Source of the DNA: Escherichia coli
GTDB taxonomy: Bacteria; Pseudomonadota; Gammaproteobacteria; Enterobacterales; Enterobacteriaceae
DNA length: 462 nucleotides
Reading direction: 5' to 3' (one strand)
Assembly (NCBI RefSeq): GCF_003334385.1
Contig: NZ_QOWN01000179.1
In this document: positions 1 to 462 of the stretch, piece after piece
How positions within the stretch are numbered: position 1 is the first letter of the stretch
Layout of the letters: every line of letters begins with the position of its first letter
Position numbers and translations under genes: made by a program
Notes under the pieces: model-generated
Told to the model about the DNA's origin: nothing
The model's input: only the letters and a program-made list of their open reading frames with translations
The model's database searches: none

Positions 1-16
1 TATTTTCCGAATGCAT
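1..16 (-). CDS. Possible 5-prime end of a leftward-transcribed gene (only the first 5 codons, M-H-S-E-N, are in the window); product unknown
   Basis: Minus-strand ATG (plus-strand CAT at 14..16) is preceded by a perfect AGGAGG Shine-Dalgarno (plus-strand CCTCCT 22..27) with a 5-nt spacer. The open frame runs off the left edge. Too little coding sequence to assess further. Confidence 0.3.
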
Positions 17-21
17 AATGA

Positions 22-27
22 CCTCCT
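22..27 (-). promoter_or_regulatory. Shine-Dalgarno / ribosome-binding site (AGGAGG) for the putative minus-strand start at 16..14
   Basis: Perfect AGGAGG on the minus strand, 5 nt upstream of ATG. The spacer is at the short end of the usual range. Confidence 0.3.
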
Positions 28-46
28 CTGGAATATCCCACCAATG

Positions 47-64
47 CTATAGTGAGTATATAAA
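47..64 (-). promoter_or_regulatory. Sequence resembling a single-subunit (T7/SP6-class) phage RNA polymerase promoter core; function speculative
   Basis: Minus strand reads TTTATATACTCACTATAG (plus 64..47). ACTCACTATAG matches positions -10 to +1 of the T7 class III consensus TAATACGACTCACTATAG exactly, and CACTATAG is the core shared by T7/SP6/K11-type promoters; the upstream block is AT-rich as in those promoters. Positions -11/-12 differ from T7 (T,A instead of G,C). It sits ~31 nt upstream of the SD-ATG on the same strand. Could be chance. Confidence 0.15.
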
Positions 65-79
65 GGTCATACCATCTAC

Positions 80-265
80 ATGTTCTTCGGCAACGATCAT
101 GGAGGCGAGCGCGGAGCTCTGCTGTACGGACTAATCGGGAGCTGTCGGTTGAACGGTATCGATCCAGAAGCGTATCTGCGCCATATCCTGAGCGTACTGC
201 CGGAATGGCCCTCCAACCGTGTTGACGAACTGCTGCCATGGAACGTAGTTTTCACCGATAAATAA
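80..265 (+). pseudogene. IS66-family transposase (TnpC-type DDE transposase), C-terminal fragment only; 3-prime remnant of a gene normally ~500 codons
   Basis: ORF 80..265 translates to MFFGNDHGGERGALLYGLIGSCRLNGIDPEAYLRHILSVLPEWPSNRVDELLPWNVVFTDK. The pattern LF-x-x-x-x-GGER-x-A-x-x-Y-x-LI-x-x-x-(K/R)-LNG-x-DP-x-AYL-x-x-(I/V)L-...-P-x-NR-(V/I)-x-ELLPWN is what I recognise from memory as the conserved C-terminal tail of IS66-family transposases (no search run). The frame is open back to 56 but closed by in-frame TAG (50..52) and TGA (53..55), so the N-terminal ~85% of the protein is absent in this frame. Stop TAA at 263..265. The ATG at 80 is probably an internal Met, not a real start. Confidence 0.8.
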
Positions 266-295
266 GTGTCAATACGGCGCTCTGTTGACGCTTAC
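266..295 (+). repeat. Candidate right terminal inverted repeat (IRR) of the IS66-family element
   Basis: Reverse complement of 266..295 is GTAAGCGTCAACAGAGCGCCGTATTGACAC. It begins with GTAAGCGT, identical to 386..393 on the + strand, and aligns imperfectly with 386..415 beyond that (shared ACAG after a 2-bp indel, shared CCGT further in). IR length is not determinable from this window. Confidence 0.4.
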
Positions 296-296
296 C

Positions 297-389
297 GATA
301 AATATCAGTTCACCTATGACGATGAAAAAATGCTGTCGCTGGCAAAAGAGATGAAAAGCGTGGTTGACAACACATCGAAATATCCGTAA
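297..389 (+). CDS. Candidate 3-prime end of an ORF in the spacer between the two IS-like termini (DKYQFTYDDEKMLSLAKEMKSVVDNTSKYP-stop); product unknown, possibly the tail of an IS-interrupted host gene
   Basis: One + frame is open across the whole 90-bp spacer and terminates at TAA 387..389, which lies inside the GTAAGCG motif. Codon choices (CTG, GAA, AAA, GCA) look like enterobacterial coding sequence, and the overlapping minus-strand ORF has the F/L/I-rich look of an antisense frame. An open frame of this length is not statistically significant alone. Confidence 0.15.
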   Translation, partial: DKYQFTYDDEKMLSLAKEMKSVVDNTSKYP

Positions 390-415
390 GCGTACAGCCT
401 GAACCGTCTGGTCAG
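386..415 (+). repeat. Candidate left terminal inverted repeat (IRL) of a second IS66-like element extending rightward off the window
   Basis: GTAAGCGTACAGCCTGAACCGTCTGGTCAG starts with the same 8-mer as the reverse complement of the putative IRR at 288..295. Orientation is that expected for a left end with the element body to the right. No coding evidence is visible in the remaining 70 bp, so this rests on the terminal motif alone. Confidence 0.25.
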
Positions 416-462
416 AATCTGACGAATTAGACAAAGTGGTGTCCACCAAATAAGTAGTGGGA

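Follow-up and report, generated by a model that had tools for sequence, protein, structure and literature searches.

Genes on genomic islands can be scarred by insertion sequences (ISs). In such scars a short gene remnant is left between IS tips, the target duplications are gone, and the neighbouring genes are deleted from the exact tip of an IS. The elements to be considered here are of described kinds as well. IS682 and ISEc8 belong to the IS66 family, in which tnpA, tnpB and tnpC follow each other in this order and insertion duplicates 8 bp of the target; ISEc8 has a length of 2,442 bp. ISEc45 belongs to the IS110 family, which is of the RNA-guided recombinase type and is recognized by an IS110-type transposase and by the lack of a long duplication. 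The terminal motif given for other members of the IS66 family is GTAAGCG (PMC12888890).

In this study, a 462-bp stretch of Escherichia coli DNA (hereafter called the window) was analysed. It holds the facing ends of two different IS66-family elements, which stand head to tail around a remnant of hsdR and belong to already known kinds: an IS682-like element (element A) on the left and an ISEc8-type element (element B) on the right. Nothing at the locus is novel in kind, since IS682-like and ISEc8-type elements, ISEc45 and remnants of type I restriction genes have all been described. The likeness to the IS-scarred genes of other islands extends to the lost duplications and to the deletion of neighbours from an exact tip. 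Compared with the usual scars, the less common point is that the 90-bp remnant is bounded by different members of the IS66 family. The names IS682 and ISEc8 are used here as they stand in the RefSeq product labels of related copies, not as matches to the ISfinder reference.

Organization of the window

Three E. coli chromosomes are 100% identical to the window, for example that of strain SCU-104 (record L001), and the features recognized by annotation and comparison are listed in Table 1. The 8-mer GTAAGCGT is found once on each strand, at 386–393 (+) and, as its reverse complement ACGCTTAC, at 288–295 (−), so that the positions and the 90-bp spacing given in a preliminary description of this DNA were verified. 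Two occurrences compare with 0.02 expected, and none of 200 dinucleotide shuffles of the window reached two. Read from tip to tip, the window runs ...GTGTCAATACGGCGCTCTGTTGACGCTTAC/CGATAAAT...AAATATCC/GTAAGCGTACAGCC..., in which the slashes mark the IS tips. The left flank (296–303) is CGATAAAT, as had been read before. The right flank (378–385) is AAATATCC; the earlier reading AATATCCG is the sequence of 379–386 and takes in the G with which the IS begins. With either reading the two flanks differ, and the conclusions are unchanged.

Table 1. Coordinates of the features in the 462-bp window
Feature	Position	Strand	Basis
Left (5') end of ISEc45 (IS110 family), inside tnpC of element A	1–76	−	L001 annotation; L001 compared with L002
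First codons of the ISEc45 transposase gene	1–16	−	Annotation of a 100%-identical record
Remainder of element A (3' end of tnpC and right inverted repeat), its last 219 bp	77–295	+	L001 and L002 annotation
3' end of tnpC of element A, DDE transposase; stop codon 263–265	77–265	+	ORF 80–265; NF033517
Right inverted repeat of element A (IS682-like, 2,536 bp); tip at 295	272–295	+	Match to left repeat; independent copies
Most likely meaningless chimeric ORF of 34 aa	285–389	+	ORF list; frame check
In-frame internal hsdR fragment coding DKYQFTYDDEKMLSLAKEMKSVVDNTSKY	296–385	+	100% identity to L004 5001–5090
Left inverted repeat of element B (ISEc8-type, 2,442 bp); tip at 386	386–410	+	Match to right repeat; plasmid copies
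Leader of element B upstream of tnpA	411–462	+	Annotated features in L001 and L002

Some smaller features can be dealt with here. The inverted repeat of the two tips extends into the spacer (13 nt, 92% complementary, 288–300 and 381–393), and we take the part in the spacer as chance. The chimeric ORF takes a TTG start from the inverted repeat of A, keeps the hsdR frame throughout the fragment and borrows a TAA stop from the tip of B. The start of tnpA in element B is annotated at the window equivalent of 457 in one genome and of 478 in another. Promoter-like or terminator-like sites were not found in the window.

Two different IS66-family elements

First, the left element is well defined by a sister genome (L002), in which A is intact over 2,536 bp (3684–6219) with tnpA-tnpB-tnpC. 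The preliminary description had placed a transposase fragment left of 295 and had let an IS66 element end there with its body to the left, and both points were confirmed. The 61-aa ORF at 80–265 aligns with positions 348–385 of the 387 in the NF033517 profile, the C-terminus of the IS66 transposase, and is continuous with the intact 537-aa TnpC in L002; tnpA, tnpB and tnpC of A all lie to the left of the tip. The right inverted repeat matches the left one at 20 of 24 positions. The A-type copies in L009, L010, L011, L014 and L027 end at the same base as 295 and are flanked by perfect 8-bp duplications (ATTTAGCA, TCTTTCTC in two cases, GCTCATTT and ACATTTCT), the two copies with TCTTTCTC probably representing one lineage.

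Copies labelled as IS682 family in RefSeq are 95.7% identical to A over the full length and share its order of genes, its tips and the 8-bp duplications. A exceeds these copies by 3 bp and diverges from them most in the last ~340 bp; at this locus, unlike the IS682 copies, it lacks a duplication, and in the source genome ISEc45 interrupts it. A nearer relative is a 2,533-bp variant without a name in L027, with 98.3% identity. At an identity of at least 99.9% the sequence of A was found at this locus only, and the next copies (98.3%) differ from it at positions that are spread and do not form one block. The divergence of the last 340 bp from IS682 raised the idea that A is a local recombination hybrid. 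This idea was rejected because a free-standing, duplication-flanked copy (L027) shares the 3' end of A, and the positions at which this copy differs from A are scattered over its length. Matches that reach window positions 299–310 at other loci were considered as a shared flank, and they turned out to be chance extensions into unrelated DNA, which reads CATTCATT at the his locus and, in L028, CGATGTCA. Rfam gave nothing but a sub-threshold match: the left repeat and leader of A (L001 2305–2395, −) reached 46.9 bits with the AfaR sRNA model (RF02515), for which the gathering score is 100, and this model may include IS66-like sequence.

The right element is equally well defined. Intact B occupies 2,442 bp of L002 (6310–8751) with tnpA-tnpB-tnpC, and its left inverted repeat matches the right one at 21 of 25 positions. 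Unrelated plasmid copies in L006, L007 and L008 have the same start and end bases and perfect 8-bp duplications (ACCTGTAA, AAATGTCA and GTATGTGC), and from 386 onward the locus is 99.7% identical to widespread 2,442-bp plasmid copies. Copies labelled 'IS66-like element ISEc8 family transposase' in RefSeq are 94.5% identical to B. The length of 2,442 bp, the order tnpA-tnpB-tnpC, tips of the form GTAAGCGT... and the 8-bp duplications made by independent copies are all ISEc8-type features of B, which, unlike ISEc8, has no target duplication at this locus. An IS66 element starting at 386 with its body to the right had been predicted, and tnpA and tnpB do follow directly on the right in SCU-104. 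The complete set of tnpA-tnpB-tnpC that was sought there is present in 12 sister genomes, where it ends 2,442 bp on with ...ACGCTTAC.

The source genome retains 864 bp of B, namely the left inverted repeat, tnpA and tnpB. In SCU-104, the similarity to a complete copy ends 864 bp into the element, just before tnpC, and a DUF987 gene comes next. The junction (L001 7249/7250) joins truncated B to a DUF987/cbeA-cbtA toxin-antitoxin module, and SCU-104 is without the zinc-ribbon/Gp2/hha genes that are present in L002.

Could the second 8-mer be a chance match, with the left IS66 element alone present? A lone 8-mer is weak evidence, and the mismatched flanks would be in line with this option, which the preliminary description had left standing. 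However, 0.02 matches are expected, tnpA and tnpB of IS66 type directly follow 386, and the sequence from there on is that of the 2,442-bp element whose independent copies have their 8-bp duplications at the base of 386. The option of chance can thus be set aside with practical certainty.

Membership of both elements in the IS66 family was judged by the curated cutoffs of NCBIfam, among other features. The TnpC proteins of the two elements score 437 and 464 bits on NF033517 (cutoff 180). For B, TnpB reaches 120 bits on NF033819 (cutoff 50) and TnpA 94.6 bits on NF047595 (cutoff 74). Both have the gene order tnpA, tnpB, tnpC in the annotation of L002, and in the source genome tnpC of A is split and that of B is deleted. 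The repeats of both begin with GTAAGCGT and show the GTAAGCG terminal inverted repeats of the family. Independent copies of both types make 8-bp target duplications, and because these are perfect and lie at the same tips, 295 and 386 are true transposition tips. At the locus itself no matching duplications are seen: A lies between GATACATG and CGATAAAT, and B between AAATATCC and CCTTCTGT.

The tandem array offered earlier as another option holds in part, in that two IS66 elements do stand head to tail. They are different IS species, with 65–68% nucleotide identity in the alignable parts only, and their inverted repeats differ after the first 8 bases. With so low an identity the pair is not a tandem array of one IS. 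A related explanation is that a single IS66 element was duplicated in tandem or formed an IS dimer, so that the 90 bp would be the joint; such a structure might be a reactive transposition intermediate. The head-to-tail order, the same orientation and the tips that both begin with GTAAGCGT are what such a dimer would show, but the two elements differ in length (2,536 and 2,442 bp) as well as in sequence. Moreover, the joint of active IS dimers, such as those of IS21, IS30 and IS911, consists of a few bases, whereas here it is 90 bp of a host gene. We regard a dimer as very improbable.

A remnant of hsdR between the tips

The spacer is identical at 90 of 90 nt to a part of an intact 3,255-bp hsdR (1,084 aa), which adjoins hsdM and hsdS in L004. 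It is in the hsdR frame, and its 29 translated residues correspond to about 1005–1033 of the protein. Across the site the intact gene reads ...CATATGCG/CGATAAAT...AAATATCC/TGACTGG.... Comparison with an uninterrupted target, which had been proposed earlier, thus places the breakpoints exactly at 295/296 and 385/386, that is, at the two IS tips. Since the spacer is a piece of hsdR that is broken at the tips, both elements inserted into hsdR, with a distance of 90 bp and a common orientation. Among the options named in the preliminary description, that of two independent insertions close together is right; the origin of the spacer from hsdR, the ISEc45 end at 1–76 and the loss of the outer flanks as the reason for the absent duplications had escaped it.

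Among 5,426 complete E. coli genomes, 16 carry the module of A, 90 bp and B, which was also found in three metagenome contigs. Both elements are intact in 12 sister genomes (L002 and 11 others), and ISEc45 is inside A in four of the 16. The neighbourhood is constant in distinct strains, with genes for N-acetylneuraminate lyase and kinase on the left and zinc-ribbon/Gp2/hha genes on the right. The recurrence of the module in the same context in 16 genomes, and its presence in three contigs, means that it is not an assembly artefact; it is one inherited event. A pseudogene left of A was tried as a further IS66 relative and gave no match in tblastn. A tRNA gene would be expected at the edge of an island, and none was found in L001.

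Loss of the outer flanks

On both outer sides of the module, left of A and right of B, the flanking DNA is not hsdR. In the island of M217 the order is hsdR, mcrC, mcrB, a DUF7828/zinc-ribbon gene, a second zinc ribbon gene, Gp2 and hha. In L002 the DNA right of B starts inside the M217-type DUF7828 gene and continues in the same gene order. About 4.8 kb (4,845 bp in the coordinates of M217) is absent from exactly the right tip of B, comprising the 3' end of hsdR, mcrC, mcrB and part of the zinc-ribbon/DUF7828 gene. The DNA left of A lacks hsdM, hsdS and the first ~3 kb of hsdR. The lack of a matching duplication at A or B is explained by this loss of the outer parts of hsdR.

Very probably, the locus arose by two independent IS66 insertions in hsdR whose outer flanks were lost later, with the insertion of ISEc45 and the deletion in B coming afterwards. 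The 3' part of hsdR would have received A and B in two independent transposition events, with one orientation and a distance of 90 bp, and each event would have generated an 8-bp duplication, expected to be CGATAAAT in the case of A and AAATATCC in that of B. Of each duplication, the outer copy would later have been lost together with the rest of hsdR, either by IS-promoted adjacent deletion or by recombination with a second copy of the same IS. Later still, ISEc45 would have inserted site-specifically into tnpC of A, and in the source genome a further deletion would have taken tnpC and the right end of B. The structure in the source genome is an inert scar that marks a destroyed restriction system, and neither A nor B is mobile alone.

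A loss that starts exactly at an IS tip has two usual causes, transposase-promoted adjacent deletion and recombination between IS copies, and it is by the latter that IS copies with unmatched flanks ordinarily arise. Here, homologous recombination would have to occur twice, once within a pair of A copies and once within a pair of B copies. Elements of both types are multicopy in E. coli, which speaks for this route. However, the 5,426 genomes yielded neither a partner copy nor a reciprocal junction, and the restriction of the exact A sequence (at least 99.9% identity) to this locus, with next copies at 98.3% and spread differences, also speaks against it. We give recombination rather than adjacent deletion slightly less than an even chance.

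The junctions and single-insertion intermediates that these routes would involve were searched for in the same 5,426 complete E. coli genomes. For the left part of hsdR joined to the left repeat of A (hsdR...CGATAAAT/GTAAGCGTAAAC), the search found only an unrelated IS682 downstream of hsdR in NCTC9113. There was no case of the right repeat of B joined to the right part of hsdR (...ACGCTTAC/AAATATCCTGACTGG), of the left part of hsdR followed by the spacer and B, of the left part of the DUF7828 gene joined to the left repeat of B (...CCTTCTGT/GTAAGCGTACAGCC), or of hsdR interrupted by A or by B with both duplications. A scan of one genome per species likewise gave no hsdR/B junction. As these intermediates are absent from the 5,426 genomes, we infer the route by which the duplications were lost.

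A second IS682-group variant at the same site

The history or the target choice is more complicated than two random hits, because a different IS682 variant lies at the same position of hsdR in other genomes. The right tip of this second IS682-group variant was found at the same site and in the same orientation in 23 genomes and six metagenome contigs. It has 5 mismatches in the last 60 bases, and the adjoining 90 bp of hsdR have none. Of the variant the last 60 bp remain (L015/L016 7001–7060; also L018, L020, L022 and L023), because an inverted ISEc8 lies inside the element and precedes them, and hsdR in these genomes runs on normally past the 90 bp toward the lut genes. An IS end is hard to replace by homologous recombination to within 9 bp of the tip, so two independent insertions at one hot spot in hsdR would be the simplest reading of these sequences.

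It is therefore worth asking whether A and B were independent random hits at all, or whether IS66 elements choose their targets, which would explain why the tips are 90 bp apart and why the CGATAAAT site was used again. One hsdR position was used in one orientation by two IS682-group variants. Other IS66-family insertions also lie within about 60–115 bp of an IS66 tip: an ISEc8 is found 60 bp inside A in L015/L016, and in NCTC9113 an independent IS682 (L014 8434–10968, with the duplication GCTCATTT), just downstream of an intact hsdR, is 113 bp from the tip of an inverted IS682 remnant. In addition, the 11-mer ACCGATAAATA occurs inside A (254–264) and across the A/hsdR junction (294–304), with p of about 0.02–0.04 in randomised windows, and GCGATAAATAT, which has 11 nt in common with the hsdR target, flanks the ISEc8 end in L016 (4546–4558), which abuts GGGGCGATAAATATA in an outer-membrane-protein pseudogene. 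Against this, no consensus emerges from the duplications of eight independent copies, so that strict specificity is disfavoured. Clustering is expected anyway in dead DNA, and the sample is small and was picked after the fact. On balance, target choice in place of independent random insertion seems rather unlikely. A more specific proposal, which we consider unlikely, is that IS682-group elements have a strong sequence-dependent hot spot ...GCG/CGATAAAT... in hsdR that two variants hit independently and in one orientation, that they may be guided by the likeness of this site to their own subterminal motif ACC(G/A)ATAAATA, and that IS66 elements may land within ~100 bp of resident IS66 ends.

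Further IS66-type traces lie nearby. An inverted 58-bp remnant of an IS682-type left end is located ~200 bp downstream of hsdR (L004 5388–5445, L012 5388–5445 and L016 7448–7505), and the similarity between the lut locus and the M217 island ends exactly at the tip of this remnant, which suggests that the hsdMSR module may have been moved by an IS66-type end. A variant with another small deletion is seen in the metagenome contigs L021 and L025, where ~34 bp of hsdR follow the A/hsdR junction before the sequence passes (...GATGAAAAAA/GTAACCGGCTCATTTAAAC...) into DNA near the downstream IS remnant.

ISEc45 inside element A

Comparison of L001 with L002 identifies ISEc45 as a 1,445-bp insertion (L001 4632–6076) with a 1-nt overlap at the junction. 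Its transposase gene (L001 4883–6016, minus strand) yields a product that scores 278 bits on NF033542 (cutoff 140). The element at window 1–76 thus has an IS110-type transposase and no long duplication, as is usual in the IS110 family, and like ISEc45 it appears to use one fixed site.

The target at the junction 76/77 lies in the 3' part of an IS66-family tnpC and can be written as AAGAATT/(T)ACATGTTCTTCGG or, alternatively, AAGAATT(T)ACATGTTC. All 915 of the E. coli records with the ISEc45 end of the window have tnpC sequence adjoining it, and in 29 of 30 evenly sampled ISEc45 ends the match runs on into the same target for 14 nt or more. Identity of the IS66 hosts to A ranges from 79 to 100%, and ISEc45 appears to insert at one fixed sequence in IS66-family tnpC. 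Two IS66 copies with ISEc45 (L003 1316–5295 and L028 2544–4795) are 88% and 79% identical to A in the part upstream of ISEc45, and the 219 bp downstream of it, equivalent to window 77–295, are 99–100% identical to A. These copies resemble hybrids, which recombination between copies of ISEc45 may have produced.

Implications

For annotation, the 90 bp between the tips should be labelled as an hsdR remnant, not as intergenic DNA or a small ORF. The single question raised by the locus is that of the target preferences of the IS66 family, given that two variants are found at one site of hsdR. For E. coli, the locus is a clear example of how a pile-up of ISs in a genomic island destroys a restriction-modification system, here hsdMSR with the adjoining mcrBC, and of how IS copies without target duplications signal later deletions.
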